DNA from: Thermodesulfobacteriota bacterium
Lineage (GTDB): Bacteria; Desulfobacterota; Dissulfuribacteria; Dissulfuribacterales; QOAL01
Assembly (NCBI GenBank): GCA_013154175.1
Contig: JAADCZ010000110.1
Location: 1 to 61,032 of the forward strand
DNA: 61,032 bases
Direction: 5' to 3'
The position numbers and the translations under genes are program-made. This document shows, piece by piece, positions 9,608 to 50,210 of the stretch. A model generated the notes under the pieces. That model was not told the origin of the DNA. It did not search any database and saw only the letters and a program-made list of their open reading frames with translations. The stretch's first letter is position 1. Each line of letters starts with the position of its first letter.

Positions 9608-10009
9608 CTACTCGTGACCTCCATGCCCCTTAGGCTTGATGCCAGTGAGCCTATTATAACCCTTTACACCAATATGGCAAAGGGTGCAGCGGGTATTTGA
9701 TGCAAAGGCGGATTCGCCATCGTGACACTGGCCACAATATTTGCCTTCATAAAGGGACTTCATATTGAAATCCTGATTTTCTTCTGCGGTACCTGCAGCC
9801 ATCTCAAAGGGCTCATCATGGCAGGAGTCGCAATCCAGACCATTTTCGATATGAATCTTGTGATCAAATACTACTGCCTTGACGGGCTTGGTGAAGATTA
9901 TGGGCTCCTGTGGGTAGTCCTCCTCATCTTCGCCAATGGCCACACCCACTCCTAGGAAGCAACACAGAAACAGCATGCAGATGAATATCTTGAAACCTTT
10001 GTTAATCAT
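9608..10009 (-). CDS. Tri-haem c-type cytochrome (c3/c7-like) with N-terminal hydrophobic anchor or signal
   Basis: It has three CxxCH motifs (CDSCH, CGQCH, CTLCH) and the N-terminal helix IFICMLFLCCFLGVGVAIG. I prefer ATG 10009 (GGGGGAAG RBS) over the longer track ORF that starts at 10054. Confidence 0.85.
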   Translation of the reverse strand: MINKGFKIFICMLFLCCFLGVGVAIGEDEEDYPQEPIIFTKPVKAVVFDHKIHIENGLDCDSCHDEPFEMAAGTAEENQDFNMKSLYEGKYCGQCHDGESAFASNTRCTLCHIGVKGYNRLTGIKPKGHGGHE

Positions 10010-10029
10010 TTGTCTTCCCCCCTGTCTGA

Positions 10030-10773
10030 TTAATCGTTCATGTAAAAGACGCATGGTTTTGCGCCAGTTTCAGGTCTGAGGACCCAGACTGCCTTGTCAG
10101 GCTGATGCACCAGCTTCCAGACCTCGCTCTCGTGATCGGAAAAGTCACCGAAAACCCTCACGTGAGCAGGGCAGGCTGCTGCACATGCGGTGAGCTTCTC
10201 ACCCTTTGAAAGCCTTGTATCCCAACAGAAGTTGCACTTGTCGATAGCCCTCTTCTCCTCATTGAAGTACCTAGCATTGTAGGGGCATGCAGCCATACAG
10301 GTCTTACAACCGATACATTTGTTGTAATGCATGACCACGATCCCTGTTTTGGGATCCTTGGTGGTTGCCTTGGTTGGGCATACCCTAACACAGGGAGGGT
10401 TGAGACAGTGATTGCAAAGAACCGGCATGAATACAGGAAATTCCTTGCCCTCATCATCCTTGGCAAGCCGCTCCAGAATGGTCGTCCTGTAGCCATATTC
10501 AGGCACGTGATTTGTCTTTACGCATGCATCCATGCACCTTTGACAGTCCACACAGTGGTTCTGCCTAATGACCATGACGTAATGCGGCTTGTAAGGCGTA
10601 TGCTCATAGCCTGCCAACTCCAACATTGCCTTTGCCTCATCCTCTGGCAAAGGAACTAGGGAAAGAATGGATCCTCCAGCAAGGACGCCTGTTATCTTTA
10701 GGCCCAACTTCAGAAATTCCCTTCTTTCCTCATCCGTAACATAATTTGGTTTATCGGACCTGTTTTCTTTCAC
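10030..10773 (-). CDS. Tat-exported four-cluster [4Fe-4S] ferredoxin-like subunit (NrfC/DmsB/HmcB/DsrO family)
   Basis: It has the twin-arginine motif ERREFLKLG and four Cys groups (CVDCQRCMDAC, CNHCLNPPCVRVCP, CIGCKTCMAACP, CNFC...CAAACP). GTG start with AAGGAGG RBS. Confidence 0.88.
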   Translation of the reverse strand: MKENRSDKPNYVTDEERREFLKLGLKITGVLAGGSILSLVPLPEDEAKAMLELAGYEHTPYKPHYVMVIRQNHCVDCQRCMDACVKTNHVPEYGYRTTILERLAKDDEGKEFPVFMPVLCNHCLNPPCVRVCPTKATTKDPKTGIVVMHYNKCIGCKTCMAACPYNARYFNEEKRAIDKCNFCWDTRLSKGEKLTACAAACPAHVRVFGDFSDHESEVWKLVHQPDKAVWVLRPETGAKPCVFYMND

Positions 10774-24501: not shown

Positions 24502-27500
24502 CTAGTGGGCCATTTCGTTCAACGAAACCCCGATTATCGAATCCCCCTCCCCTGGTCGCCTGACCTTGCAAACAGAAACCCTTGATGTTTGCTGAAGCCA
24601 TTTGCACAAATCAACGGGTTTGTCTTCAAACCTTGGGGGCAGCCCAAGATCGAGGGCAAAGAGGCCAGAGACAACTGCAGTGGCCATGGAAGTTCCACTC
24701 AGAAAATTGTAATGCCCATCTGGTATGGTGGTGAGCAACTTTTCATGTGGGGCAAGGATATCCGCCTTTGAACACACCTTCCTGCTAGGATACATGGAAC
24801 CATCTTCCGAAAGACCACCAACGGCAATCACGTCCTTGAGGCGCGCAGGAAATGGCAGCTCCGCCACCTCTGGGTCGTTGCCCACAGGGGCGACAAAGAC
24901 CACACCCTTTCTTGCACCTTCAGAAATAAGTGGCTCAAGGGTCTTGTCATGGACATAGGCGCCAAAACTCATATTCACGACCTTGCTCCCATGTTCCAGG
25001 GCGTAGTCCAGGGCATCTGCAAGGGCATCGGTAAAGCACTGCCCCTTGGGGCTGTCGGGCCGGATCTGCCTGCAGGCCCTCAGGGCAAGGATGGCCACGT
25101 TCTGGGCAATGCCTTCCACGCCTTTACCATTTCGTTTGGCTCCAATTATTCCAGCTACTGCTGTGCCATGGATCTCTGGTTTGAACTGCTCTCCGTGAAT
25201 GAAGTTCTCCTTAAGGGAAATCGCCCCCTTCAGCTCTGGATGATTCACATCCACGCCTGTATCTATCACTGCCACCTGGGTCTTCTCCCCCTTTTCAAGC
25301 CTTCTTAAGGTTGAAATATCGAGCACGTCATAGATGGCCTGACGTTCCACAAGGGGATCTGCCGAGGAGGACAAGAGCGTGAAAATATAGTTGGGCCCTG
25401 CTGACTTGACAGCGGGTATCTTGCCTGCCTTCTTGATAATCTCTTCAACATCCTGCCCCTTCGTGGAAAAGACTCCCATCACCTTGCCCAGCATTCCCAA
25501 CTCGGTCTCATAGAGCAGTTTGATGCCAAGGCGCTTTTCAAGGGCCGAAGCCACTGAATCTCCAGCATCCTTCATCCAGGTGATAATCACCTGATTTGGG
25601 ACATAACTTCCCTTGTTATTCAACTTGAGCGTCCAAACAGGGCTTTTACCAATCAACTCGCCCCGCTTGCTAAAGCCCTTCACCTGCCAAAGGACCTTAT
25701 TGATGGATGAAAAATACCTGACAGCAATCTTGGCCGGGACCTTGTAATGGTTGGTTTTTACATAGGCGGAATAAAGGGGTTTGGACCTTTCACTTTCCCT
25801 GAATTCAATTAGGTAGGCGTAGAGGTTCCCCCCGCCAAGGGGCTTCCACTGAAAGGTAAGCCCTGGCAACGTGGTAGAACCACCATTCAAAGGCCTTACC
25901 AGCCTGATGGATTCCACATTGTAGGACTTGGCCCTTACAAAATAGACAGCCTGAGGCAATTCGAAGTCGAACTTAGGGGAAAGAATCACGAACCTTACTC
26001 TATGAACCCCTGGTTCGAATGTAGGTAGTGGCGTTGTTGCAGGAAGCTGCAGAACTATGCTTCTGCCATAGTTTATGTGCCTAAAGACAGTTGAAAGTGG
26101 TCGGCCATCCACCTCCCAGTAGCCCTTCAGCAACCCTGTGCCCGTATAACGAATTTCTGCAAAGAGCTTTGGTGAAGGCTGACCCTTGCCGATAGTGATT
26201 TCAGCCCTGTTATTTTCAAAGTATAACTGTAAACGTGAGATACTAAATGGAGCTGCCGCCTCTGTGGTTATGATTATCTCTACGTTTGCAGTGAGATCAA
26301 ACTGGGTGTTCGAAAATCTTCTGGTATAAAAAAACCTTGTCGTACCAAGCTTTTCCGCCCGTTTCAGCACGGAGACAGGTATCATAACCACTTCCCTTAC
26401 AGAAGCCCTGCCTCCCACGACGTGGGCGTAGAGGGCCTTTGAAACACTGCCAATGTCACGGCCTGCAGCTTTGAATGAACCACCACTCGAGGTCAAGTCG
26501 GTGGTTATGTCATGATCCCCTGAAAAGGAATAGACGAGTTCCATTTGAGAGGGCAAACCCCTTGGTATGGTGACGTGATTCGGGGTCACGATTACCGACA
26601 GGTTGCGTGGTTTGGGAGCACTTGCCACATTCAGGCTAAAGGTCCTCGTTGCACTCTGCCTTCCATAGGGGCAGGAGTCGGTGGCCACAAGGGTGAAGGT
26701 AAAGAGGCCTGAAGTGGTGGGTGTGCCGGTAATGAGCCCGTTTGATGAAAGGACAAGCCCTGGTGGAAGCTGCCCAGAGGCCAAAGATATGGTTACAGGT
26801 GACTGCCCCCCCGAGGTCGTGATGCGTGTTGAATATGGCTTTTGAACCTCGGCACCTGGTAAGGCGGAAGGTGTCGTAATGGTAAGTTCCGGACACGTGG
26901 TAACAGGTGGCGTTTCTTGCGGAGGCTGGGGCGGGCCCAATATGGTGATCTCAAAATTCTTCTGGATGTGCATCTTTCCCATTGGGCATGAATCAGTAGC
27001 CCGCACAATGAAAGAATATGTTCCTTCGACTGTGGGGATACCAGAGATTACCCCCTGGGAACTGAGAGAGAGCCCTGGAGGGAGCTGGCCACTGACCACT
27101 GAATAGTATATTGGTCGCTGGCCTCCTACCACCCTGAGGACCTGGTAATACTGTTTGCCCACTTCTCCTGTGGGAAGGGTTGAAGGGCTCGAGAAGCGAA
27201 GGGAGCCACACTTTACGAGCAATTCATTTTGCCCGTCGGGATATGGCGCAATTCTGTTGCACTTGCTTTGATTTACATAGGCATGAACAACATACTCTCC
27301 AGCCCTAAAATAGGTGTGGCTGACATAGACGTTACAAGTTTCTGAGCGACATACGGCCTTTCCGCTGGTTCCATCTCCATAATTTACAACTATTTCACAA
27401 TATACTGGTGGAGGACCAGTAGTTCCTGCAGCCATTAAGCTTGCCGAAATGCCTATGTTAACACGCTGACCAACCGAGGCAGGATTTGGATTCAAACTCA

Positions 27501-27576
27501 CTCCTAGGGCAAACAGGTACCCTTCTGTTATGAGCAACATTGCAAATGCCAATGTGACTATGAAAAATCTCTTCAT
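24502..27576 (-). CDS. Secreted multidomain subtilisin-like serine protease (signal peptide, PKD-like domain, 2x He_PIG-type Ig domains, beta-rich middle region, propeptide-like segment, C-terminal S8 domain)
   Basis: 1024 aa. The PKD-like segment is VNYGDGTSGK...SHTYFRAGEYVVHAYV. There are two repeats of the form SGQLPPGL.LSS.G.I.G.PT..G...F...ATDS. The S8 catalytic triad motifs are VAVIDTGVD, HGTAVAGIIG and SGTSMATAVVSG. Confidence 0.9.
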   Translation of the reverse strand: MKRFFIVTLAFAMLLITEGYLFALGVSLNPNPASVGQRVNIGISASLMAAGTTGPPPVYCEIVVNYGDGTSGKAVCRSETCNVYVSHTYFRAGEYVVHAYVNQSKCNRIAPYPDGQNELLVKCGSLRFSSPSTLPTGEVGKQYYQVLRVVGGQRPIYYSVVSGQLPPGLSLSSQGVISGIPTVEGTYSFIVRATDSCPMGKMHIQKNFEITILGPPQPPQETPPVTTCPELTITTPSALPGAEVQKPYSTRITTSGGQSPVTISLASGQLPPGLVLSSNGLITGTPTTSGLFTFTLVATDSCPYGRQSATRTFSLNVASAPKPRNLSVIVTPNHVTIPRGLPSQMELVYSFSGDHDITTDLTSSGGSFKAAGRDIGSVSKALYAHVVGGRASVREVVMIPVSVLKRAEKLGTTRFFYTRRFSNTQFDLTANVEIIITTEAAAPFSISRLQLYFENNRAEITIGKGQPSPKLFAEIRYTGTGLLKGYWEVDGRPLSTVFRHINYGRSIVLQLPATTPLPTFEPGVHRVRFVILSPKFDFELPQAVYFVRAKSYNVESIRLVRPLNGGSTTLPGLTFQWKPLGGGNLYAYLIEFRESERSKPLYSAYVKTNHYKVPAKIAVRYFSSINKVLWQVKGFSKRGELIGKSPVWTLKLNNKGSYVPNQVIITWMKDAGDSVASALEKRLGIKLLYETELGMLGKVMGVFSTKGQDVEEIIKKAGKIPAVKSAGPNYIFTLLSSSADPLVERQAIYDVLDISTLRRLEKGEKTQVAVIDTGVDVNHPELKGAISLKENFIHGEQFKPEIHGTAVAGIIGAKRNGKGVEGIAQNVAILALRACRQIRPDSPKGQCFTDALADALDYALEHGSKVVNMSFGAYVHDKTLEPLISEGARKGVVFVAPVGNDPEVAELPFPARLKDVIAVGGLSEDGSMYPSRKVCSKADILAPHEKLLTTIPDGHYNFLSGTSMATAVVSGLFALDLGLPPRFEDKPVDLCKWLQQTSRVSVCKVRRPGEGDSIIGVSLNEMAH

Positions 27577-27584
27577 GATGCCCC

Positions 27585-29504
27585 CTAAAACGTAAAGTTT
27601 ACGTTGGTGGTAAAATCAATCAGGACCATGAAAGAATCCTCACTCCTATCAAACACCCTATCATCCTGCCACGTATAACGCCCCCTGATGCCCACTGTTG
27701 GCTCCTCGATGAAATGTTTCCAATTTGGCATTATGCAAAAGGCGAGCCTAGTGTGGATATCTAGATTCTGCTGATCAACCGAATCGTCGTCGGCCTCGGT
27801 AATATTGTAGTTACCTGCAAAGGACCAAAGAACCTTGTCGGTCAATTGCCATTCCATGTCCCAATTGGCCATGTATGTATCTGTCTCAACATCTCTCAGG
27901 TGGGAAATGGATTTGTTGTAGCTGAAACTTGGATTGAACCTGAAGACATTTCCTGTGTAACCCGGGGCAAAAACAAATGTTATGGTGGCAGTGTCTCCGG
28001 ATACGTGCGCCTTGTCATTTTGATAGGAATAGGCAGTATGAAAATTGAGATTCCAGGCACCCTTTAGCCAAGAGACATCTGCCCCAACAGAATCTGTATC
28101 GAAATAGATTTCCGGGGTGTATTCAGGTTCATCAGTGCTGTTCTGGATGACTTTTTGATAGTAGATGGATATTGGTAGGTTAGGAAGTTTGTTCCAAGAA
28201 TATTTGACACCCCCTTGGATGTCATAGACCTTTGGATAGAGCTTGTTGTCCTTAACGTTGTCGTTATATCTTGAAAACATGAACTCGAAACGGTGAAAAC
28301 CAGAGGTTATCCAACTGGCAAGGGAAAACCCTTCTCTATTCTTTGGAAGCCCCTGATTGCCTATTACTTCATAGTCTGGCCCCATATATTCATAGGTGCC
28401 GGAAAAGCCATAAGTTGCATCGTCCCATGCCAGTGAGGCCCTGTACGCCTTGTCACTTTCAGGCCCAAACTCATCCTTGGTGCTTGCATCATACTCGGAG
28501 ATGTCATACTCGCCCGTTATACGAAGCCTTGAGTTGAACCAGTTGGACTCAGCAATAAAGCCCCCAACCTTGCCACGCCGCCTGTCTTCAACAGTTGAAA
28601 TTCCAAAGGAACTGCCTTCCTCACCACCCTTTGCATACATGGAGCGAAGGGTTACATGATTGTCTAGAAGACTTACTGTTCCAGAAACCCCGTAAAGCTT
28701 GTCATTTGGATCGATGTCAACACCCAGCCCCCCATGCAAGCCATAATATTGGGCAGTGTTGGTGGAGAATAGATGTAGGCCAAGGACCTTGTAATTTAAA
28801 AATATCTGTCCGCCCTTTCTGGCATAATTGTTCACTGTATTTTGGGACTCCGTGACGATTATGTCTCCAAGTTGAGAGTCCATTCGGAAGTCTCCCCTTT
28901 CATAAACAGACTCGAGGAGAAAGCTTATGAGGTCGAAACCCTTTTTCTCTGGATACTCGATTGGGTGATCCTGGTCCACATAACGCAGTTCACCTCTTGC
29001 TGAAAATGTCCAATAGTTGGTACTGACCCGGTTTTCGCTGGACCAGTCCCCATCAACCCTCGAGTTAGGCTGCTGAGGCATATCGTCCTTTCTAAGCACC
29101 ATCTGATAAGTCAGCCCTGTAGAATTTTTTGAATAAATCTCCTTAAAGGCCCTGGATTGGCGGGATTTGAATCCAAAAGCTTCTGTGTAATAGGCTCCGG
29201 CTTCGTTCTCCCAGCTGATTTCCAGGATGTGATCACCAGCCGGAAGTGGCAGTATGGGTCTGAAGGAGCAAATGCTCCCATTGCACTCGACCATTGCGGT
29301 AACATCTGTACCGTCAAGAAGTACCAACATATTGTTTTGAGCCCCATGATCCTCACATTTCCATTTAAAAACGGGGCGTTTACCAACAATAATTTTGTCC
29401 AGATTGGGGCTGAAAAGCTCAATCTGGCTAGCGTATGTAAGACCATTTACAAATATCATGAGAACACTTGCAAGCAATACGAGGTGTTTTTGCTTTTGAG
29501 TCAT
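27585..29504 (-). CDS. Large outer-membrane beta-barrel protein with an N-terminal soluble (Ig-like?) domain, family unknown
   Basis: 639 aa. It has a signal peptide (LVLLASVLMIFVNGLTYA), about 500 aa of alternating strand-like Y/G/N/D/S-rich sequence, and the terminal NVNFTF. The stop lies 8 nt before the protease ATG. Confidence 0.65.
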   Translation of the reverse strand: MTQKQKHLVLLASVLMIFVNGLTYASQIELFSPNLDKIIVGKRPVFKWKCEDHGAQNNMLVLLDGTDVTAMVECNGSICSFRPILPLPAGDHILEISWENEAGAYYTEAFGFKSRQSRAFKEIYSKNSTGLTYQMVLRKDDMPQQPNSRVDGDWSSENRVSTNYWTFSARGELRYVDQDHPIEYPEKKGFDLISFLLESVYERGDFRMDSQLGDIIVTESQNTVNNYARKGGQIFLNYKVLGLHLFSTNTAQYYGLHGGLGVDIDPNDKLYGVSGTVSLLDNHVTLRSMYAKGGEEGSSFGISTVEDRRRGKVGGFIAESNWFNSRLRITGEYDISEYDASTKDEFGPESDKAYRASLAWDDATYGFSGTYEYMGPDYEVIGNQGLPKNREGFSLASWITSGFHRFEFMFSRYNDNVKDNKLYPKVYDIQGGVKYSWNKLPNLPISIYYQKVIQNSTDEPEYTPEIYFDTDSVGADVSWLKGAWNLNFHTAYSYQNDKAHVSGDTATITFVFAPGYTGNVFRFNPSFSYNKSISHLRDVETDTYMANWDMEWQLTDKVLWSFAGNYNITEADDDSVDQQNLDIHTRLAFCIMPNWKHFIEEPTVGIRGRYTWQDDRVFDRSEDSFMVLIDFTTNVNFTF

Positions 29505-29524
29505 TACAAGCCATCCCCCACTTC

Positions 29525-30163
29525 TTAATAAGCAGGCGCCAAAAACTCCACCAGCCCTGATTCCCTTAAAATCTTTGCACTCTCCCTCTTTGGGACATGC
29601 ACCACAAAGAGATCCTTGCCAGTAGGTCCATCCACTATCTTCATGTGATGCTTCCTAAGAAAAGAGACGAGGTCATTAATTTTTGTCTCCCCTTTAAATA
29701 TTACGTTGTACTCCACTCCATTATTCACAGGGTTGTTGGACGTCATGGTTTCAAATCCAGAGTGCATACCCTGAAAATAAAGAAGGGCTAAGAACAACAC
29801 TACCGCCTGGGCAGCACACATGGCCCAGGCAAGCTGGGGCATTTGAAAAAATTCCCTCAATCTGTCCCAAAAACCAGGCTCACAGTCTTTGGAAGGCTCC
29901 TTGGCCAGAAACTGGCCGTCCACCCTTGTTTCCTCAAGCCCAATTTCTTGAGATATTCTTTCAAATATTTTTTCTGAGGCTGGTTCTACCTCTTTTTCAA
30001 GTGCCTCAAAGGCCTTTTTAATTTGTATAGCTTCACGAAGTTCCTGTTCCAGCTCCTGACTTTCCCTTAAAGCCTCCTCAAACCTGGCTGCCTCATCCTC
30101 TGATAAACGGTTGTTTATATAATCCGGTATTAAATCAATGAATTTGTCTAGCTTCTTGTCCAT
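29525..30163 (-). CDS. Putative membrane-spanning anti-sigma factor (non-zinc type)
   Basis: The gene immediately follows the ECF sigma stop (TGA TTG ATG). It has a helical N-terminal domain (LIPDYINNRLSEDEAARFEEAL) with no HxxxCxxC, one TM helix (LAWAMCAAQAVVLFLALLYF) and an extracytoplasmic domain of about 75 aa. Confidence 0.6.
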   Translation of the reverse strand: MDKKLDKFIDLIPDYINNRLSEDEAARFEEALRESQELEQELREAIQIKKAFEALEKEVEPASEKIFERISQEIGLEETRVDGQFLAKEPSKDCEPGFWDRLREFFQMPQLAWAMCAAQAVVLFLALLYFQGMHSGFETMTSNNPVNNGVEYNVIFKGETKINDLVSFLRKHHMKIVDGPTGKDLFVVHVPKRESAKILRESGLVEFLAPAY

Positions 30164-30166
30164 CAA

Positions 30167-30694
30167 TCAATCTTCCCTGCTCAGTTCTTGCTTAAGTGCT
30201 TTCTTAGCGTGATAAACCCTGGTTTTTACCGTATTCAAAGGTATTTTTAGCAAGTTTGAAATTTCCTCATATGGCAATTCCTCAAAAAATACGAGGTGCA
30301 AGACTTCCCTATGCTTAGGGGATAGCCTCTCGAGGCCCTTTTTTACCAGCTCGATATTGGCAAATTTATCCACAAAGCTTTCTGCTTCATTGCTCTTGAG
30401 TTCATAATGATCGTCAATATCATCAAATGTTCTATTCTTCTTCAAAAACTTAAATGACAAGTTCCTTGCAATTCCCAAAATCCAAGTAATGGCCTTAGAC
30501 CGGCCCTGAAATTTGGCAGCACTTTTCCATATCTCGATGAAGGTATCTGCCAATATGTCTTGAGCAGCAGTTTCATCTTTCACCAGACCGAGAATATAAA
30601 AATAAACCCGCTTGTTTATTTCCTTATAAAGTAAGCTAAAGGCCTCTCGATCCTTTAACGCTACTCGACGTATCAGATATTCAAGGTCCGCCAT
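30167..30694 (-). CDS. ECF-type RNA polymerase sigma factor (sigma-70 family, regions 2 and 4)
   Basis: 175 aa. The region 2 segment is AQDILADTFIEIWKSAAKF. The region 4 HTH segment is LPYEEISNLLKIPLNTVKTRVYHAKKAL. Confidence 0.9.
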   Translation of the reverse strand: MADLEYLIRRVALKDREAFSLLYKEINKRVYFYILGLVKDETAAQDILADTFIEIWKSAAKFQGRSKAITWILGIARNLSFKFLKKNRTFDDIDDHYELKSNEAESFVDKFANIELVKKGLERLSPKHREVLHLVFFEELPYEEISNLLKIPLNTVKTRVYHAKKALKQELSRED

Positions 30695-36058: not shown

Positions 36059-36892
36059 CTAGCCGCTCCTTAAAAGTGACATCAGCGTAACCCCTGAATA
36101 AGCAAATGTCCACATGAGAATAAGCGTGTAGAGGGACATGGAATTTCGCACCCAAGGCAGCAAAAAAAGCACCAACAGGGGCACTGCAGGAAAAATCACG
36201 CCTGCAACCAGGGGGTCGAAATAGCGAAGCAGTTCCTGGATTCCCAAGAAGAACCAAGGGCCCTTTATCAGATGGGCATTGAAGGCAGGCAAGTCAATGG
36301 GAGCACGGATCATTGAACAAAACACCACGGTTAGTGCCAGAGCAAGCCCAAAGGCAGCCAGAGTGATTCGCACCCTCTTAAGGTGATACCATGTACAAAG
36401 GAGCCAGCATACGAACCCGGCGAATATGTGAACTGCATAAAGCCTGTTGAGGCCGTCACCAGATATATTCATGAGCATCTTGTCTATAATCTCGCCAAAG
36501 ACGGGAATGCGTAAGAAAAGATGCTCCGCTATGGCACCAGCGGCCTGACCAGTGGCATCGTAGCGCAGAACATAACCGGAAAACAGGGCATAGATACCTA
36601 TGGGAACAGCCAGGGCCACTATGGTCCAGTGCAACTTGAGCCGCCTTGGGGCAACCCCATCCGCCACCTTGTGCCTCAGGTCAATTACATGAAGAACCAT
36701 CATGACTACAAATAGCTGGCTGGTCCAAAAATGGACGGATCTGAAAAAGGAGCCAAAGGGAAGAACGGCCTCTATAGCCACAGAGGAAACAAAGGGCGTG
36801 GCTGCCTCATACTGATACGCCACTATGAAGCCGCTGAGCAGGGATAGAAGCAGCAAGGCGCCGGCAAGATGGCCATAGGTAATTTTCTTCAT
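36059..36892 (-). CDS. Cytochrome b (b6-type histidine spacing) of a Rieske/cyt b complex
   Basis: It has two bis-His helices (VHFWTSQLFVVMMVLH, H-x13-H; VHIFAGFVCWLLCTWYH, H-x14-H). The N-terminal LSGFIVAYQY...AFxS-like segment is present. ATG 36892 overlaps the Rieske TGA (ATGA). The track extension to 37075 is rejected. Confidence 0.85.
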   Translation of the reverse strand: MKKITYGHLAGALLLLSLLSGFIVAYQYEAATPFVSSVAIEAVLPFGSFFRSVHFWTSQLFVVMMVLHVIDLRHKVADGVAPRRLKLHWTIVALAVPIGIYALFSGYVLRYDATGQAAGAIAEHLFLRIPVFGEIIDKMLMNISGDGLNRLYAVHIFAGFVCWLLCTWYHLKRVRITLAAFGLALALTVVFCSMIRAPIDLPAFNAHLIKGPWFFLGIQELLRYFDPLVAGVIFPAVPLLVLFLLPWVRNSMSLYTLILMWTFAYSGVTLMSLLRSG

Positions 36893-37284
36893 CGTGGGAT
36901 ATACACCAGGTAACCTGCACCGTTTTCCAATGTCTTCACCTTGAACTTTTGCAAATCCTTCTTGGCCGGGCCGGCAATGTATTTGCCCGATTTGGTAAAT
37001 TTGCTCTGGTGACAAGGGCAAAGAAACATGGATTTTTCCTCGATAAAGTTGATACGGCAGCCCAAATGGGTACACGTCCGTGATACAGCCACAGGCCCCT
37101 TGGATGTTTCAAACAGCACAAACTCAGGCTCTACCAAAAATTGGCCAGGCTTCAACACCCGGGAGATTCGCCGTTCTAGAGGCGGGCGGTATCTCTGGCT
37201 CTTCCAGAAGGAAATTACTGGCAAGGTCAAAACTGTAAAAAATACACCAGAAAGCCATTTTTTCAAAAGAGATCTTCTTGTCAA
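36889..37284 (-). CDS. Rieske [2Fe-2S] protein with twin-arginine signal anchor
   Basis: Box I is CTHLGC and box II is CPCH. The N-terminus TRRSLLKKWLSGVFFTVLTL is a Tat motif plus helix. TTG start lies 7 nt after GGGAGA. Confidence 0.87.
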   Translation of the reverse strand: MTRRSLLKKWLSGVFFTVLTLPVISFWKSQRYRPPLERRISRVLKPGQFLVEPEFVLFETSKGPVAVSRTCTHLGCRINFIEEKSMFLCPCHQSKFTKSGKYIAGPAKKDLQKFKVKTLENGAGYLVYIPR

Positions 37285-40843: not shown

Positions 40844-40889
40844 ACCCTCTCTTTCATTTTGATTCGATTATGTGAACAAGGAGAAGATC

Positions 40890-41438
40890 ATGAAAGATTC
40901 ATTAAAAGTTGCAGTTGCGGTGGTACTTATTCTGGTATTTTTTATGGTTTCCTCAATATACGCCATGGAACTTAAAAGGAGTGAAAGAAAGTGGTCTGGC
41001 TCCCTCGAGTTGGGCTCTACCTTCAATGGCTCCCCTGCCCTAAGGATCGTTGGCGCATACTGGCTCCCCAAATATCTGCAGATTTGGAAATATGGCGTGG
41101 GTTTCATGAGACTGGAACTGGATACCGGCATCCTGGATAATAGTGACACCACCCTCGACGTAGGATTCCAACCTGTATTCAGGTATGAATGCCACAGATC
41201 TGATAGTATCTGGCCATACATTGACCTTGGGGCAGGAATACATTTTCTGTCTAGGGCAAACATCAATGGCAGACAGCTCGGGGCTGCTCAACAATTTTCA
41301 CTACTTGCCGCCATGGGTGTTTCCTTTAAAAGTGGAATAGAGATAGGCTACAGATACTTGCATATCTCGAACGCCAACCTGCACTCTCATAACGATGGAC
41401 GGGACGAACATCTGGGCGTGGTCACATTTTTCTTTTAG
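40890..41438 (+). CDS. Lipid A 3-O-deacylase (PagL)-like outer-membrane acyloxyacyl hydrolase
   Basis: It has a signal peptide, a small beta-barrel, the catalytic-type H-x-S-N motif (YLHISNANL) and the terminal VVTFFF. ATG 40890 lies 5 nt after AAGGAGA. Confidence 0.72.
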   Translation: MKDSLKVAVAVVLILVFFMVSSIYAMELKRSERKWSGSLELGSTFNGSPALRIVGAYWLPKYLQIWKYGVGFMRLELDTGILDNSDTTLDVGFQPVFRYECHRSDSIWPYIDLGAGIHFLSRANINGRQLGAAQQFSLLAAMGVSFKSGIEIGYRYLHISNANLHSHNDGRDEHLGVVTFFF

Positions 41439-41520: not shown

Positions 41521-41768
41521 TGTACCGTCAATACTTTCCTGCCTCCTTATAGAAAAAATCTCCACATTTGGCCAGCCACTTACCAGCCACATCCTCCCTG
41601 GAACTACCTTAGGCTGGCATTAAAAATTTTTCTAAAATTTTTTACAAAAATCTTCTTAATAAAAATTAACTCCCGATCGATAATTATATTGTGAAACTTT
41701 TTGATTGAGACTTCTCTGGTCAAATTCATTGATAATCCAGTCATGGGATTAAATAAGGAGGTTAACCT

Positions 41769-43097
41769 ATGTATCCATTCTGGGAAGTGCCCTTTTTTAC
41801 GTCAGGTCTCGTTATTGCCCTGATAGCCACCTTCCACATATTACCGTGCCATTTGGCCACAGGCGCCTTTTGGTTCAACGTATATGTGGAACGAAAGGCC
41901 TATAAACAAAACAGGCCGGAGCTTTTGGAGTTTATTAAAAAATTTTCATTACTGATTCTGATTTTCTGCTTTGTCATTGGTTCTCTGTCGGGGGTTGGTA
42001 TCTGGTATGCTGCGACAGTGGCCAGCCCTAGGGGGATCTCTGGCCTCATTCACAACTATGTCTGGGGATGGGCCACTGAGTGGGTATTTTTCATCATCGA
42101 AATCGCAGCCATCTATGTCTACTACTACACGATAGGCAAGATTGACCCCAAAAGCCACCTGATGCTGGGCTGGCTTTACGCATGGGCTGCCTGGATAAGC
42201 ATGGTTATCATCACAGGCATTCTGGCCTTTATGCTCTCTGCTGGAAAATGGGTGGAAACAGGCGGCTTTTTCGACGGATTCTTCAACGAAACCTACTGGC
42301 CACAGCTATTTACAAGAACCGCCTTCATGTTTGGCATAGCAGGCGTCTATGCGGCCATAGTTGCCAGCACCATCAAAAACAAGAAGGTCAAGGACGAGAT
42401 CATTCGCACAGCTGGTCTGTGGGGAGTGGTTGGCATGCTGGCCGGAGTTGTATTTGCAGCCTGGTATCTCTACAAACTGCCACCCCATGCAAAGGAGCTA
42501 TGGCTCGATGAAAGCCTTCCTTACCTCAGCCATCTAATTAACATCGCTGCATTGGCCTACGCTATAGTCTTCGTCTGGTTTGTCATCTGCTGCATCGTAA
42601 AGCCAAAACTTGCAGGCCCTGTAAGCGGAGTCATCATCCTTCTGGTTCTCTTTATGGGAATAGGTGCAGGGGAAGGCTTCAGGGAAGGCATCAGAAGACC
42701 ATACATCATCGACCAATATATGTATGGCAATCAGATTGTTGCCAGGGATATACCGGCCAAACACATCAAGGCGGAAATTCCCAAGTTTGACAAAGAAGGC
42801 TTTCTCACCCACCTCTTTTTCAAACCAGACAAGATAGACCCTGAAAATTCCAGGGACCTCCTCTTGGCAGGTAATGTGATCGTCCACCATCAGTGTGGCA
42901 ACTGCCATGCCCTGGACCGGTTTGGCAAGCTTAGACCTTTGCCAGAGCTTCTGGAAAATCTTTCACCTGAGTCTCCCGAAGACATCGAAGGGCTACTTGA
43001 GTCCCTTGGAGACTATCCCTACATGCCGCCATTTGCCGGAAACGATTTGGACAGAAAGGCTGCATCTGAATATCTCTTTTCCATAGTAAGGAGGTAA
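41769..43097 (+). CDS. Cytochrome bd subunit I (CydA)-like membrane protein with C-terminal mono-haem c domain
   Basis: 442 aa. The N-terminal helix with His (LIATFHILPCHLATGAFWF) parallels the CydA TAMYHFLFVPLTLG. The acidic helix ATEWVFFIIEIAAIYVYYY parallels LAIEGLMAFFLESTF. GFREGIRRPYII parallels AEYGRQPW. The CxxCH motif (CGNCH) lies at nt 42894-42908. AAGGAGG RBS is present. Confidence 0.7.
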   Translation: MYPFWEVPFFTSGLVIALIATFHILPCHLATGAFWFNVYVERKAYKQNRPELLEFIKKFSLLILIFCFVIGSLSGVGIWYAATVASPRGISGLIHNYVWGWATEWVFFIIEIAAIYVYYYTIGKIDPKSHLMLGWLYAWAAWISMVIITGILAFMLSAGKWVETGGFFDGFFNETYWPQLFTRTAFMFGIAGVYAAIVASTIKNKKVKDEIIRTAGLWGVVGMLAGVVFAAWYLYKLPPHAKELWLDESLPYLSHLINIAALAYAIVFVWFVICCIVKPKLAGPVSGVIILLVLFMGIGAGEGFREGIRRPYIIDQYMYGNQIVARDIPAKHIKAEIPKFDKEGFLTHLFFKPDKIDPENSRDLLLAGNVIVHHQCGNCHALDRFGKLRPLPELLENLSPESPEDIEGLLESLGDYPYMPPFAGNDLDRKAASEYLFSIVRR

Positions 43098-43100
43098 CAA

Positions 43101-44324
43101 ATGGACATTGCAACTTACTTAAACACAATGAGGGACCCAGCCGGACTCCCTTTTTACCCAATAATCTTTCAGTTTCTCCTTGTATTGACCTTTGCACTCC
43201 ACATCGTAATGGTCAATCTCGTTGTGGGAAGCACCTTTGTGGCTATTTGGGAAATATGGAAGAAAAACAAATATGGCCTGAGGCTATCAAAGGCCCTTGG
43301 CAGGGTGCTGACGGTCTCTCTATCCATTGCCATTGTATTAGGAGTTGCCCCGCTCCTTTTCGTTCAGGTTATCTATGATCCTTTTTGGTACACTGCCACG
43401 ACGATGTCCGCCTTTTGGGCACTCATGTTCCTTGTAGTCATAACCCTGGCCTTTTACGCGGCATACGGATTCTATTTAGGAAACAAAAAGGCTGATCTTA
43501 CAAGTGTAAAAACTGGATGGGCATGGGTCTCAGCGGGGTTTCTTATGTGCACCGCCCTGATTATTCACATGCTTTCCATGGAGCAGTTGGTTCCAGAGCA
43601 TTGGAAGGACTGGATAGTTTCTCCAAGTGGAATCGTATCCTATGCAGGGGGCGAATTTCACGCCATTGAATTGGGGCGACTGTTGCACTTTATCATTCCC
43701 TCCTTTGCAGTGACAGGTGTCTTCCTGATGCTCTATGCAGCCTACTTCCACGGAAGGGAAGATTATGACGAAGAATACCTGGACTATGTGGGGCAAAAAG
43801 GGGCGTGGCTGGCCTTCTGGGCATCTGCCCTTGCAATAGGAGCAGGTTTCTGGTGGCTTGGCCTTGTTCCCGCTGAGTTTCATTTTGCCAGAAACCCATT
43901 CTTCCTGGCAGGCGCCATCTTGGGGTTCATCACCACTGCATTCATAGGGGCCTCCATATCAAAGCCAAGGCAAAGGGCCCTTCCTGCTGCCGGACTCATG
44001 TTTCTCACCATCTTTACCATGAGTTGCGCCAGGGAGGCCTTGAGGATGAAACACATGTCTTTGTCTGGCTATTCCATTTATAACTATCCAGTGAATCCAG
44101 ATTGGCCTAGCACCATCCTTTTCTTCGCAACCTTTGTCATGGGGCTTTTTGTCCTTTACTTCCCAGCCATTGCCGCCTATCAGGCAGGAAAGGTGAAGGC
44201 TGGCGAGGTGGCTACCATCGATCCGGCCATTGGCAAAAAGGCTGTCACCGCCATGATTGCCTGGTTCGTCATCGTTGCCGGCCTTGGGATCGTTGTTTCA
44301 CTTAAAAACGGGGTGTTATTCTAG
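43101..44324 (+). CDS. Polytopic membrane protein partner of the CydA-like protein (possible second CydA-like/CydB-like subunit)
   Basis: 407 aa with about 9-10 hydrophobic helices. The first helix carries a His (LTFALHIVMVNLVVGSTF), mirroring the upstream protein. It starts 3 nt after the upstream stop, with AAGGAGG RBS. Confidence 0.55.
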   Translation: MDIATYLNTMRDPAGLPFYPIIFQFLLVLTFALHIVMVNLVVGSTFVAIWEIWKKNKYGLRLSKALGRVLTVSLSIAIVLGVAPLLFVQVIYDPFWYTATTMSAFWALMFLVVITLAFYAAYGFYLGNKKADLTSVKTGWAWVSAGFLMCTALIIHMLSMEQLVPEHWKDWIVSPSGIVSYAGGEFHAIELGRLLHFIIPSFAVTGVFLMLYAAYFHGREDYDEEYLDYVGQKGAWLAFWASALAIGAGFWWLGLVPAEFHFARNPFFLAGAILGFITTAFIGASISKPRQRALPAAGLMFLTIFTMSCAREALRMKHMSLSGYSIYNYPVNPDWPSTILFFATFVMGLFVLYFPAIAAYQAGKVKAGEVATIDPAIGKKAVTAMIAWFVIVAGLGIVVSLKNGVLF

Positions 44325-44349: not shown

Positions 44350-44382
44350 CAAAAAAAGGCGGCCAACTTAGGCCGCCTTTTT
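44350..44382. terminator. Bidirectional Rho-independent terminator between the bd-like operon and ppsA
   Basis: AAAAAAAA-GGCGGCC-AACTTA-GGCCGCC-TTTTT. Confidence 0.9.
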
Positions 44383-47191: not shown

Positions 47192-48637
47192 TCAGAGGTT
47201 GGAAAGTTCGGACGTACTAATTTTTCTTGGCTTTTTCCTGAAACTTTCCGCCTCAAGCTCATGCCTTTCAAGGAGTTTGTAGAAATCTGCCCTGTAATAG
47301 CCGGCATGTTTGGCAGCAAGACTGATGTTCCCTTTGGTGATTTTCAGTAAATTCTCAAGATATTTCCTGGTAAACTCATATCGTGCTTCCTTAAGGGGCA
47401 CAACAGGAATTTTTGAAGTATATTCAGCAAGGGGAGTGGCAGCCAAGAGGGAGGAGCTCAAAATGTCTTCCTGGGCAATGGCCACAAGAAAGTCCACCAT
47501 GTTTTCAAGCTCCCTGACATTTCCAGGCCAATCATACATTCTGAAGGCATCGAGTATATCTTCATCGACCCAGTTGATGAGTTTCTTGGTCTTTTGCATG
47601 GCCTTTTTGAGAAAATGACCGAAAAGAAGGGGGATATCCTGCTTCCTCTCCCTTAGAGGCGGCATATGTATCGGAACGACATGAATCCTGTAAAAGAGAT
47701 CTTCCCTGAATTTCCCTTCAGCCACCATCTTCTTTAAGTCCTGTTTGGTGGCCACTATTAGCCGTACATCCACCTTTCGCACCCTGTCGCTACCCAGGGG
47801 CTTTACCTCTCCGGTCTCCAACACCCGCAACAATTTCGCCTGCATGGACTCGGCCATTTCCCCAACTTCATCGAGGAAGAGGGTTCCAGTGTCGGCAGAA
47901 GCAAACACTCCATTCTTGGAGCCCACGGCAGAGGTAAATGCCCCGCGGACATGGCCGAAAAGCTCATCTTCCAACAAGGATTCAGGGATTGCAGCGCAGT
48001 TTACGGCTATAAAGGGCCCCTTTGCCCTACCGCTATGCATGTGGATGGCCCTGGCAACCAACTCTTTTCCAGTCCCTGACTCTCCAAAGACAGCCACGGT
48101 GATATCGGTGGGAGCGACCTGGAGAATCTGTTTAAAAACAGATTTCATCTTGGGGCTTTTGCCAATAATCCCGCAAAATTCGCTCTTTCCATCGATTAAT
48201 CCTTCAAAATCATGCACTTTCTTAAGCAAGGATGTTTTTTCAAGGGCCTGTTCCAGTTTTACCTCCAACTCTTTGTGGTCAACTGGCTTTGTGACATAGG
48301 AGAAGGCCCCTGCCCTCATGGCCTCTACTGCCTGCTCTATGGTGCCAAAGGCGGTAAAGATTATGGTTTGCAAATATGGATTTATCTCCAAACACTTGGA
48401 CATAAGCTCCTGACCTGAAAGGTTTTCCATGCGCTGGTCTGTCAGGAGTATCTCAATGTCTGGATTTTCGGAAAAGATTTCTAGGGCCTCTTCTGGGTCC
48501 TGTGTTGCAATTACTTCATAACCCAACAGTTCAAGCCTAATTTTCATTACCTCTAGAATATTTTCTTCATCATCGACAAGTAAAATCCTGGCCTTTGTTT
48601 TGCGAATAATCTTTTTTTGTTGCTTTTCCTTTGTCAT
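47192..48637 (-). CDS. Sigma-54-dependent response regulator (NtrC family: REC, AAA+, Fis-type HTH)
   Basis: The REC domain starts ILLVDDE. The Walker A motif is GESGTGKE, and a GAFTGA-type loop is present as GAFTSA. The C-terminal HTH is GNISLAAKHAGYYRADFYKLL. Confidence 0.93.
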   Translation of the reverse strand: MTKEKQQKKIIRKTKARILLVDDEENILEVMKIRLELLGYEVIATQDPEEALEIFSENPDIEILLTDQRMENLSGQELMSKCLEINPYLQTIIFTAFGTIEQAVEAMRAGAFSYVTKPVDHKELEVKLEQALEKTSLLKKVHDFEGLIDGKSEFCGIIGKSPKMKSVFKQILQVAPTDITVAVFGESGTGKELVARAIHMHSGRAKGPFIAVNCAAIPESLLEDELFGHVRGAFTSAVGSKNGVFASADTGTLFLDEVGEMAESMQAKLLRVLETGEVKPLGSDRVRKVDVRLIVATKQDLKKMVAEGKFREDLFYRIHVVPIHMPPLRERKQDIPLLFGHFLKKAMQKTKKLINWVDEDILDAFRMYDWPGNVRELENMVDFLVAIAQEDILSSSLLAATPLAEYTSKIPVVPLKEARYEFTRKYLENLLKITKGNISLAAKHAGYYRADFYKLLERHELEAESFRKKPRKISTSELSNL

Positions 48638-48707
48638 ATGTACAACCCTATGTTAATTCCTTATCTTATAAATTATATCTATTGGCATTGAACGACAAAA
48701 AGTTAAT

Positions 48708-50210
48708 ATGAAAATCTTCGAACCATTTAGCCTATATCAAAAACTACTAGCTGGATATTTATTTCTCCTTTTCATTTTGATTGTTCCTTGCCTCTTTTCA
48801 CTCTATTCCATTTACAGAATAGAGGATACCATTTCTACATATTTTAAACGAAATCTTGAAATATCTTCATCCTTAGAAAATGCCAAAAATCTTGTGCCAT
48901 CTCTGGAGGCTGAAGCGAGGCGCCTGGTAATCTTGCACAAAAAGGACTCTCTAAAACAGGTCAAGCAGATTATCTCTAACCTCGAGCACAAACTTTCTCC
49001 TGACATTGCCGAAGATTCACCTCCTCTGAAAAAAAATCTAATAGAGTTTCAAAAAACGTTCCAATTGCTGAGAAAAATCATCATAAGTTATGAAAGAAAA
49101 ATCGGACGGCCAGACAAAGGCACCAAGGGACCAAATCTGTCAGATGAGGCCAGGGAGCAGGAGATCAAGGGACTTGCCTTCCATTTGATGGAGCTTTTGA
49201 AGAAGGCTGAAATTATCCAGAAAGTCAGCCTTAAAAAACGCTCCTTGGAGACTTCCAGGGTCATCAGCCAGGTGAAGGATGGAACCATCATTCTCATGCT
49301 CATTGCATTCATAGCTGCACTCTTTGTTCCTTGGGCACTATACATATATATCAAAAAGCCGATTCTCTATTTGCAGAAGGGCACCGATGCCATTGGAAGC
49401 GGAAATTTCGACCACCAGATCCCAGTCATAACCAATGACGAGTTGGGGGAACTGGCCAAGTCATTCAACAACATGGCCAAGAGCTTGAAGGAACTAGACA
49501 CATTAAAATCCGATTTCATCGCCGTGGCCAGCCATGAGCTCAAGACTCCACTAGCCGCCATGCTTGAAGCCACAAGACTTCTCAGGGAGCCAGATATTGG
49601 TGAACTGAATGACAGACAGGCAAAGCTCGTGGAGGTCCTCAATACCAGCATGGAAAAATTCAAGGCACTCATCGAGGAATTGCTCGATCTATCCAAGATG
49701 CAGGCTGGTCTTTTGAACCTAAACAAGAAATCGGTCTCTGTGGCAGAATTAATCGACACTGTCACGGAAAATGTTGCACCGCTTCTTTCTGCAAAAAACT
49801 TGGACATAATAATTGAAAATTCTGATAAAAATCTCAGGGTTAAACTAGATAAAAAACGAATGGAGCGGGTACTTTTAAACCTTCTCGACAATGCTATTAC
49901 CTTTAGCCCTAAGGGTAGTGCCATAAAAATTGCCGTTGATAAAAAAGTTGAAAAAAAACGTGCTTTCGTTCAAATAGCTGTTATAGACTCGGGACCTGGC
50001 CTTGAGCCAGACGAACATGCCCGAGTTTTTGAAAAGTTTTACCAAGCAAAGACTGCGCCAAGACAAAGTGGCAGTGGTTTAGGGCTCACCATTGCCAGAC
50101 AAATAATTTCAGCCCATGGAGGTAAAATTTGGATAGAAAGTCCGCCCCCAAAAGAGTTGGCAGTAACAGAGGGAAAAGGTACAGCCGTATTCTTATTATT
50201 GCCGCTCTAA
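48708..50210 (+). CDS. Membrane sensor histidine kinase (2 TM, HAMP, HisKA, HATPase_c)
   Basis: The H-box is ASHELKTPL, the N-box is LLNLLDNAITFS, G1 is DSGPGL and G2 is GSGLGLTI. It is divergent from the response regulator gene across a 70-nt spacer. Confidence 0.92.
   Translation: MKIFEPFSLYQKLLAGYLFLLFILIVPCLFSLYSIYRIEDTISTYFKRNLEISSSLENAKNLVPSLEAEARRLVILHKKDSLKQVKQIISNLEHKLSPDIAEDSPPLKKNLIEFQKTFQLLRKIIISYERKIGRPDKGTKGPNLSDEAREQEIKGLAFHLMELLKKAEIIQKVSLKKRSLETSRVISQVKDGTIILMLIAFIAALFVPWALYIYIKKPILYLQKGTDAIGSGNFDHQIPVITNDELGELAKSFNNMAKSLKELDTLKSDFIAVASHELKTPLAAMLEATRLLREPDIGELNDRQAKLVEVLNTSMEKFKALIEELLDLSKMQAGLLNLNKKSVSVAELIDTVTENVAPLLSAKNLDIIIENSDKNLRVKLDKKRMERVLLNLLDNAITFSPKGSAIKIAVDKKVEKKRAFVQIAVIDSGPGLEPDEHARVFEKFYQAKTAPRQSGSGLGLTIARQIISAHGGKIWIESPPPKELAVTEGKGTAVFLLLPL

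Follow-up and report, generated by a model that had tools for sequence, protein, structure and literature searches.

A probable OR-C1a/OR-C1b gene pair of the cytochrome bd superfamily with a fused haem c domain in an uncultured hydrothermal-vent bacterium

Within the cytochrome bd superfamily, the OR-C family was defined by Murali, Gennis and Hemp (bioRxiv 10.1101/2021.01.16.426971; ISME J 15:3534, 2021), with 532 enzymes counted in GTDB genomes in 2021. Its OR-C1a type is a CydA of eight transmembrane (TM) helices that lacks the quinol site and carries haem c in the periplasm at its C-terminus; in this type, the residues corresponding to H19, E99 and E107 of Escherichia coli CydA are kept, H186 is replaced by phenylalanine and M393 is absent, whereas OR-C1b is an adjacent OR-C1a paralogue lacking the channel glutamates, for which eight TM helices are stated as well. 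Cytochrome c was proposed as OR-C donor in the same study, which treats OR-C1a and OR-C1b as uncharacterised, and later papers merely repeat the classification. Among the isolates with a single-haem OR-C1a (Table S7 of Murali et al.) are D. vulgaris DP4 and Miyazaki, D. desulfuricans ATCC 27774, Hydrogenobacter thermophilus and members of Thermocrinis, Sulfurospirillum, Lysinibacillus and Chitinophaga, while Caldimicrobium, Dissulfuribacter and Thermosulfurimonas do not appear in the isolate tables. Here, we describe two adjacent genes, A and B, which very probably encode such an OR-C1a/OR-C1b pair with a periplasmic haem c, located on a stretch of 61,032 nucleotides from a Thermodesulfobacteriota bacterium (contig JAADCZ010000110.1 of assembly GCA_013154175.1; the whole stretch is hereafter termed the window).

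In an original prediction, made from the nucleotide sequence alone, the pair had been taken for an uncharacterised member of the bd superfamily, and the survey by Murali et al. had been named as listing haem c-fused clades of this kind. The survey indeed exists and names the two clades, and the assignment to the superfamily holds on the evidence of fold, Pfam match and OR-C1 features described below. Every OR-C1-defining feature tested was found in A-B. As one of many members of a large, abundant and already catalogued family, the pair is ordinary rather than an oddity, and represents neither a new system nor a new architecture.

Membrane domain and haem c tail of protein A

Protein A (442 aa) narrowly passes the Pfam model PF01654 (Cyt_bd_oxida_I; 29.5 bits at a cutoff of 26.2, E 3.7e-7), the match spanning only positions 5-229 of the 418 profile positions. 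Protein B (407 aa) does not match any Pfam or NCBIfam model, including the CydB model PF02322, and the NCBIfam search was not informative for A either, so that the comparison with bd-oxidase models suggested in the original prediction succeeded for A and failed for B. At the sequence level, none of the solved CydA structures is retrieved by the family profiles (alignments of 50 database homologues each for A and B), which made a search by fold necessary. As modelled with AlphaFold2, A (pLDDT 84.4, pTM 0.82) shows eight long helices (residues 12-46, 52-85, 101-121, 127-156, 176-199, 205-235, 251-277 and 284-309) followed by a small helical domain, and the best 17 matches obtained with Foldseek against the PDB are all bd-oxidase subunits, with CydA chains first (E 6.6e-6). 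The model of B (pLDDT 89.1, pTM 0.87) has ten TM helices and likewise retrieves bd-oxidase chains as its best 13 matches, the best eight of them CydA and CydB chains ranking lower (E 1e-4). With TM-scores up to 0.65, these comparisons of predicted structures are decisive for the kinship of A and B with bd oxidases at the level of the fold, both models having the bd-oxidase fold.

The N-terminus of A is uncharged, and the loops between helices 1-2, 3-4, 5-6 and 7-8 are rich in lysine and arginine, while the alternate loops are poor in these residues. This pattern and the model point to eight TM helices with both termini outside, the N-terminal orientation being the same as in CydA. As the canonical TM9 is lost and the positive-inside pattern is kept, the C-terminal domain bearing the CxxCH motif is predicted to be periplasmic, as had been proposed. 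Attachment of haem c takes place in the periplasm and not in the cytoplasm.

For mapping individual residues, a canonical profile was built from E. coli CydA and AppC and from CydA of M. tuberculosis, M. smegmatis and C. glutamicum. The hhalign comparisons of families A and B with this profile are weak (E 0.08 and 0.03, respectively), while their register is consistent helix by helix. The hallmarks from which the relation to CydA had been predicted, i.e., the histidine in TFHILP (H23), the acidic helix EWVFFIIEIAA (E104 and E111) and the segment GIRRPYII (residues 307-314), are all present in A, and the probable E. coli counterparts of these and other positions are given in Table 1. Of the two glutamates, only E111 is placed by direct alignment, whereas E104 was equated with E99 on account of its location six residues upstream; six residues between the two is the published spacing of the OR-C/qOR3 type. 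In addition, H130 of A aligns with H126. At the periplasmic end of TM8, E306 falls on E445, R309 on R448 and P311 on P450, by which GIRRPYII comes to lie on E445-YGRQPW, in agreement with its earlier description as a GRQPW-like segment. In contrast, the position of the haem b558 ligand H186 falls near R183, with no histidine anywhere in TM5, and TM7, expected to hold the second b558 ligand M393, is free of methionine. The anticipated haem ligands are therefore found in part, with the equivalents of H19, E99/E107 and H126 present and invariant and the b558 ligands absent.

Conservation was followed in 78 A and 70 B genes independently retrieved from species-representative genomes (210 relatives found in the scan, 80 loci examined). 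The residues H23, H28, H95, E104, E111, Y118, H130, R183, E302, R305, E306, R309, P311, C376, C379 and H380 of A are present in 77 or 78 of the 78 copies, with both glutamates and the CGNCH motif found in all of them and H23 as well as M419 in 77. In a wider set of 150 diverse A-family representatives clustered at 50% identity, multihaem forms included, the TM1 histidine is kept in 131 of 134 sequences, the two glutamates in 139/144 and 138/146, the residues of the E-x2-R-E-x2-R-x-P motif in at least 117/120, the first CxxCH in 101/101 and its methionine in 96/97. These conserved features of A are far beyond chance. H95 and M187 were also considered as additional haem ligands; both are invariant in the close clade, while H or R and A, C, M or S, respectively, occupy these positions family-wide, making them unlikely as universal ligands. 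Also invariant in the close clade is the periplasmic segment SPRGISGLIHNYVWGW between TM2 and TM3 (residues 87-102, window 42027-42074), the sole part of the model with a pLDDT below 50, which may need haem or the partner subunit for folding.

The long Q-loop, noted as missing in the original prediction, is indeed not encoded. In the model of A, TM6 and TM7 are connected by a loop of about 15 aa, and residues ~240-390 of E. coli CydA do not have a counterpart. That A-B might be an ordinary, merely divergent quinol-oxidising CydAB would be in line with the PF01654 match of A and with the public annotation of many homologues as 'cytochrome ubiquinol oxidase subunit I'. Because the Q-loop and the b558 ligands (the TM5 histidine and the TM7 methionine) are missing, this reading is effectively refuted. 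Moreover, the PF01654 match is a partial one, the family profile does not find canonical CydA in the PDB, B is nearer to CydA than to CydB and without PF02322 match, and a haem c site is fused to A, leaving a conventional quinol oxidase extremely improbable.

The modelled helices of the C-terminal domain (residues 361-376, 391-397, 403-415 and 426-441) correspond to a class-I cytochrome c fold at about residues 355-442, close to the approximately 90 aa originally assigned to the soluble domain, whereas the whole extramembrane tail is longer (about 133 aa, residues 310-442). Its best Pfam match, PF13442 (CcoP-type cytochrome c), stays below the cutoff (19.7 versus 27 bits), and the family A profile shows weak matches to NorC-like, bc1 cytochrome c and c6 chains, whereas the profile of B does not retrieve any PDB chain. 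As had been noted, CGNCH (residues 376-380) is the sole CxxCH of A, and exactly one such motif is present in each of the 78 genomic copies. Hence, A has one haem c site of the His/Met type, with M419 as probable sixth ligand, in a tail predicted to be periplasmic.

When 1.84 billion representatives were searched exhaustively with a profile, 1010 clusters were retrieved at E ≤ 1e-3, of which 285 remained at E ≤ 1e-30. Full-length representatives have one (63 sequences), two (19) or eight (17) CxxCH sites, the single-haem form being the commonest of the family, and six representatives inspected combine a CydA-like core with two, three or about eight haem c sites. Proteins of 800-890 aa, which had been candidates for natural A-B fusions, turned out to consist of the A core and a tail of about eight haem c sites that, with about 400 aa, is near B in size. 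The core of an eight-haem OR-C1a-type protein shares 36% identity with A over the full length (E 5e-86), and the profile search recovers multihaem OR-C1a of the Desulfovibrionia type at about E 1e-100. From these similarities, a placement of A outside the OR-C clade appears unlikely. The closest relatives (83-87% identity) are encoded in metagenome-assembled genomes of uncultured 'Deltaproteobacteria' sharing the synteny of the window, and other hosts belong to the Thermodesulfobacteriota (Dissulfuribacterales, Caldimicrobium, Thermosulfurimonas, Thermodesulfatator), to Nitrospirota/Thermodesulfovibrionales and to bins labelled Aquificota or Aquificales.

Protein B and the two-gene operon

The product of the second gene, described in the original prediction as a membrane protein with a histidine in its first helix (H34), possibly a CydA-like paralogue rather than a canonical CydB, is related to A by profile comparison (hhalign probability 93.3%, E 2.6e-7, 254 columns), with H23 of A on H34 of B and REGIRRPY of A on REALRMKH of B. 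As B lacks a Pfam match, its membership in the bd superfamily rests on this alignment and on the modelled fold, both of which identify B as a diverged CydA paralogue and not a CydB, in line with the earlier proposal. No CxxCH is present in B. The positions of E99 and E107 are hydrophobic, the equivalent of H126 is not conserved and one of M393 was not identified. H34, located within LTFALHIVMVNL, as well as R193, H196, M307, R311, E312 and R315 are found in all 70 B copies, which otherwise share 41-86% identity. H196 lies in GRLLHFIIPSFAVTG at the periplasmic start of TM5 and is probably equivalent to the b558 ligand H186, the segment being aligned with VKFVHTVASGYVTG of E. coli, which carries H186, in alignments that are weak (E 0.03-0.1). 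Retention of an invariant H19-like and an invariant H186-like histidine together with an E445-like glutamate would be a modest new point about the OR-C1b type. Another might be the ten modelled helices of B, compared with the eight stated by Murali et al., a difference that is descriptive and not family-defining. Some relatives of B are shorter (about 367-372 aa).

Gene B starts 3 nt after the stop codon of gene A, as originally noted, and its Shine-Dalgarno sequence sits inside the 3' end of gene A. From this arrangement and the short gaps in other genomes (mostly 3-19 nt), the two genes appear to be translationally coupled. B directly follows A in 69 of 78 loci from several phyla, while conserved accessory genes, such as those for a dedicated cytochrome c, maturation factors or a CydX-like peptide, were not found beyond A-B across the 80 loci. 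Accordingly, the pair can be regarded as a self-contained module, here organized as a self-contained two-gene operon that is closed by a terminator shared with the convergent gene of phosphoenolpyruvate (PEP) synthase. The lack of conserved accessory genes is a further modest new point. Neither in the gap of 330 nt upstream of gene A nor nearby was a plausible small open reading frame (ORF) for a CydX-like peptide seen, and canonical cydAB genes are encoded neither in the window nor in the loci examined. A promoter scan of the locus gave matches no more frequent than in shuffled sequence.

Two other relations between A and B have to be considered, namely that both are independent neighbours, or that B is a degenerate, cofactor-free scaffold in which the conserved histidines are structural only. 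The latter would have a precedent in canonical CydB, which does not bind haem, and the weak alignments behind the mapping of H196 on H186 leave room for it. On the other hand, the gene order persists in several phyla with every other neighbour changing, translation is coupled, and the invariance of H34, H196, M307, R311, E312 and R315 in 70 of 70 sequences at 41-86% identity exceeds what a scaffold usually needs, which makes both options improbable. The invariant residues H34, H196, M307 and E312 rather suggest that B binds a cofactor, too.

Table 1. Features of the A-B locus (positions refer to the window).
Feature	Position	Strand	Basis
Shine-Dalgarno sequence of gene A, AAGGAGG	41755..41761	+	sequence reading; 7 nt 5' of ATG
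Gene A, OR-C1a-type CydA-like subunit	41769..43097	+	ORF, 442 aa
Membrane domain of A, aa 1-309, predicted TM1-TM8	41769..42695	+	model helices, hydropathy, positive-inside pattern
H23 codon of A, in TFHILP; probable equivalent of E. coli CydA H19 (axial ligand, di-haem O2 site)	41835..41837	+	profile alignment
E104-x6-E111 of A, in EWVFFIIEIAA; probable equivalents of proton-channel glutamates E99/E107	42078..42101	+	E111 aligned on E107
E302-G-F-R305-E306-G-I-R309-R-P311-Y312 of A, periplasmic end of TM8; probable equivalent of W441...E445-Y-G-R-Q-P-W	42672..42704	+	hhalign
Class-I cytochrome c domain of A, about aa 355-442, predicted periplasmic	42831..43094	+	sub-cutoff Pfam match, weak profile matches, model helices
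CGNCH haem c attachment motif (C376, C379, H380), sole CxxCH in A	42894..42908	+	sequence reading
M419 codon of A (YMPPF), probable sixth ligand of haem c	43023..43025	+	aligned on Met of 'mp.f' segment in cytochrome c matches
Shine-Dalgarno sequence of gene B, AAGGAGG	43088..43094	+	sequence reading; within 3' end of gene A
Gene B, OR-C1b-type CydA paralogue without haem c motif	43101..44324	+	ORF, 407 aa
H34 codon of B, first helix; probable equivalent of H19	43200..43202	+	aligned on A H23 and E. coli H19
H196 codon of B; probable equivalent of b558 ligand H186	43686..43688	+	weak alignments; periplasmic start of TM5
M307...R311-E312...R315 of B, in TM8; probable counterpart of A R305-E306...R309	44019..44045	+	A-B profile alignment
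Bidirectional intrinsic terminator hairpin, 12-bp stem, A/T runs on both sides; closes A-B operon and convergent PEP synthase gene	44353..44382	no strand	

Electron entry, terminal acceptor and genomic surroundings

From the residues and modelled folds, A-B is probably a cytochrome c:O2 oxidoreductase encoded by a self-contained operon, with the fused haem c as entry point, while for O2 itself as the physiological acceptor we consider the chances only somewhat better than even. In the sequence of steps that we infer for A-B, extending to haem occupancy, donor, acceptor, membrane side and energetics, a soluble or membrane-anchored periplasmic cytochrome c would reduce the fused haem c (H380/M419), which would replace quinol and haem b558 as the point of electron entry. 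From there, electrons would reach a di-haem site located in TM1-4 and TM8 of A, with H23 and E306 as ligands, where O2 would be reduced to water with protons taken from the cytoplasm via a channel lined by E104, E111 and H130, and B would be the obligatory partner of A. With electrons coming from the outside and protons from the inside, turnover would be electrogenic at about one charge per electron, neither pumping nor copper being involved. In the hydrothermal-vent Thermodesulfobacteriota-like anaerobe harboring the window, the likely role would be to scavenge traces of O2 by using the cytochrome c pool of the periplasm.

Donors of the c-type in the periplasm are plausible, since the window encodes both a Rieske/cytochrome b pair and a secreted tri-haem cytochrome. 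The former, located on the minus strand 4.5 kb upstream of the pair (36059-37284), comprises a Rieske 2Fe-2S protein of 131 aa and a cytochrome b, encoded by a 338-aa ORF the start of which overlaps, together a minimal bc-type module that could feed the periplasmic cytochrome c pool; a Rieske gene at the same position is found in the closest relatives only. The latter, a cytochrome c7-family protein of 148 aa with three CxxCH, is encoded directly after a Tat-signal 4Fe-4S dicluster protein of 247 aa (9608-10773, minus strand), and an NrfD-like membrane subunit was not seen adjacent to these two genes.

Several findings weigh against oxygen reduction fed by cytochrome c. Most hosts of the family are strict anaerobes, and haem type and number are not readable from the sequence. 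The links to canonical CydA are weak at the sequence level (hhalign E 0.03-0.08), and the family A profile retrieves only weak cytochrome c matches and not a single CydA chain from the sequences of the PDB, so that the fine residue mapping rests on motif register and fold. Table S6 of Murali et al. marks E445 of the OR-C1a reference as missing ('-'), contrary to the mapping presented here; conservation of an E-x2-R-E-x2-R-x-P motif equivalent to E445/GRQPW across OR-C1a would thus be a modest new point at variance with the published table. A published purification, assay or characterisation of any OR-C enzyme was not found in the literature, where locus tags of tractable homologues are covered by one proteomics mention only. 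This concerns SMUL_0150 of S. multivorans, a single-haem OR-C1a by its listing in Table S7 of Murali et al., which is 39.5-fold up in fermentation-adapted anoxic cells (pyruvate), not pointing to O2, and 7-8-fold up when fermentative is compared with respiratory growth. Finally, the sequence of the window is present in only two hydrothermal-vent metagenome DNA runs, and RNA runs holding the A-B locus were not found.

Much of this would also fit the same OR-C1 complex with the same haem c entry and an acceptor other than O2, such as NO, peroxide or another small oxidant, or a function as a transmembrane or quinone-linked electron conduit, which we regard as possible but rather unlikely. The concentration of the family in sulfur disproportionators, sulfate reducers and Thermodesulfovibrionales and the induction of SMUL_0150 in anoxic fermentation would be consistent with such a function. 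So would Rrf2-type (NsrR/IscR-like) regulators and flavodiiron proteins as neighbours in some lineages, the latter also handling NO, the missing b558 site of A, and the residues H34, H196, M307 and E312 which B, unlike the haem-free CydB, keeps and which are unnecessary for the simple model. However, the E-x6-E pair, H130 and the di-haem ligands of the H19/E445 type are the parts of bd oxidases engaged in O2 chemistry, and they are best conserved here. For canonical bd and CydAA' enzymes, assays to date have shown reduction of O2, aerobes and microaerophiles (such as Hydrogenobacter, Thermocrinis, Chitinophaga and Lysinibacillus) are among the hosts of the family as well, and O2-scavenging oxidases are common in anaerobes.

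A more far-reaching proposal would be that OR-C1 is a complex bearing haem in both subunits, catalyzing a non-O2 reaction in strict anaerobes, rather than a bd oxidase in which only the entry side has changed. Since B keeps H34, H196, M307 and E312 while A has lost the b558 site, the complex could hold a chain of b-type haem in B in addition to the di-haem site of A, and the reaction might connect cytochrome c electrogenically with the membrane or reduce NO or peroxide. Induction of SMUL_0150 in anoxically fermenting cells would be in keeping with such a complex, which we nevertheless consider doubtful, continuing to favour the cytochrome c:O2 oxidoreductase.

Beyond the pair itself, gene neighbourhoods are lineage-specific. 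An Rrf2-family regulator with conserved cysteines is encoded on the same strand, mostly directly upstream of A, in five loci of the Nitrospirota/Thermodesulfovibrionales type. In one of them, L074, a copy is located just downstream of B, and the regulator adjoins A-B on the same strand in L070 (1508-1909), a bin labelled Syntrophaceae. This neighbour suggests control of A-B by redox, NO or Fe-S status. A flavodiiron-type protein, with metallo-beta-lactamase/ODP and flavodoxin domains, is encoded two genes downstream of B in four loci of one clade (e.g., L060, 10917-12104). Flavodiiron-type proteins are O2 or NO reductases, and these lineage-specific neighbours give a hint at oxidative or nitrosative stress. 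In the window, a PagL-like lipid A 3-O-deacylase is encoded directly upstream of A on the same strand (40872-41438, plus strand); it is kept only in the nine closest loci and probably reflects synteny rather than function. At a greater distance, genes for an ECF sigma factor, an anti-sigma factor of the zf-HC2 type, a protein of 639 aa without Pfam match and an S8 subtilase of 1024 aa carrying He_PIG Ig-like domains form a cluster on the minus strand (24502-30694), and the G+C content is lower at 28-32 kb (0.41-0.45). Beyond the PEP synthase gene, two divergent genes are located at 47192-50210, of which the one on the minus strand (481 aa) bears the sequence hallmarks of a sigma-54-dependent response regulator and the one on the plus strand (500 aa) those of a HAMP-type histidine kinase; the pair is syntenic in close relatives, and the G+C content drops to about 0.42 at 48-52 kb.

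Comparison with known systems

OR-C enzymes would oxidise cytochrome c on a bd scaffold and without copper. They are widespread, with about 1000 clusters at 50% identity in the present search, and concentrated in sulfur-cycling anaerobes and thermophiles. Once their donor, haem complement and acceptor are known, it should become clear how the hosts cope with or use trace oxygen, and the biochemistry would test ideas on the early evolution of O2 reduction and show a bd active site working without haem b558. As a compact single-haem representative (442 and 407 aa, two genes, no accessory ORFs), A-B suits heterologous expression and cryo-electron microscopy, although the locus alone is no more tractable than many homologues in cultivated bacteria.

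In function, the fused domain of A resembles the haem-copper oxidase CcoNOP of the cbb3-type, in which membrane-tethered class-I cytochrome c domains feed the oxidase as well. The catalytic subunit of CcoNOP is unrelated, however, as A-B has neither the haem-copper fold nor CuB, and the likeness is that of a generic cytochrome c domain with a sub-cutoff match. A second subunit derived from a duplicated CydA without proton channel is shared with the archaeal CydAA' (qOR4a/qOR4b) and with OR-N, for which cytochrome c has been proposed as donor, too. In contrast to A-B, CydAA' oxidises quinol through the Q-loop of qOR4a, and qOR4b has lost H186, whereas B keeps an H186-like histidine, while OR-N has 10-14 TM helices and no fused haem c, with separate donors encoded in its operons.

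With canonical CydAB quinol oxidases of the qOR1-3 types (e.g., E. coli bd-I, 6RKO; Geobacillus thermodenitrificans, 5DOQ), A-B has in common the predicted folds of both subunits, the adjacent genes for a pseudo-symmetric heterodimer and, in A, the TM1 histidine, the channel glutamates, the H126 equivalent and the E445-GRQPW region. It differs from these enzymes in lacking the Q-loop, the haem b558 ligands and a CydX-like ORF, in the fused haem c, in having eight instead of nine predicted TM helices in A with the C-terminus outside, and in a subunit II that is a CydA paralogue keeping its histidines, with sequence similarity to the canonical subunits being marginal. By comparison, the OR-C1a/OR-C1b pairs share with A-B the CydA-like subunit of eight TM helices without quinol site, the C-terminal CxxCH assigned to the periplasm, the equivalents of H19, E99 and E107 with six residues between the glutamates, the YxY motif and the loss of both H186 and M393. 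Nothing essential sets A-B apart from them, the pair representing the minimal one-haem form of this type in an uncultured vent lineage outside the published isolate list.

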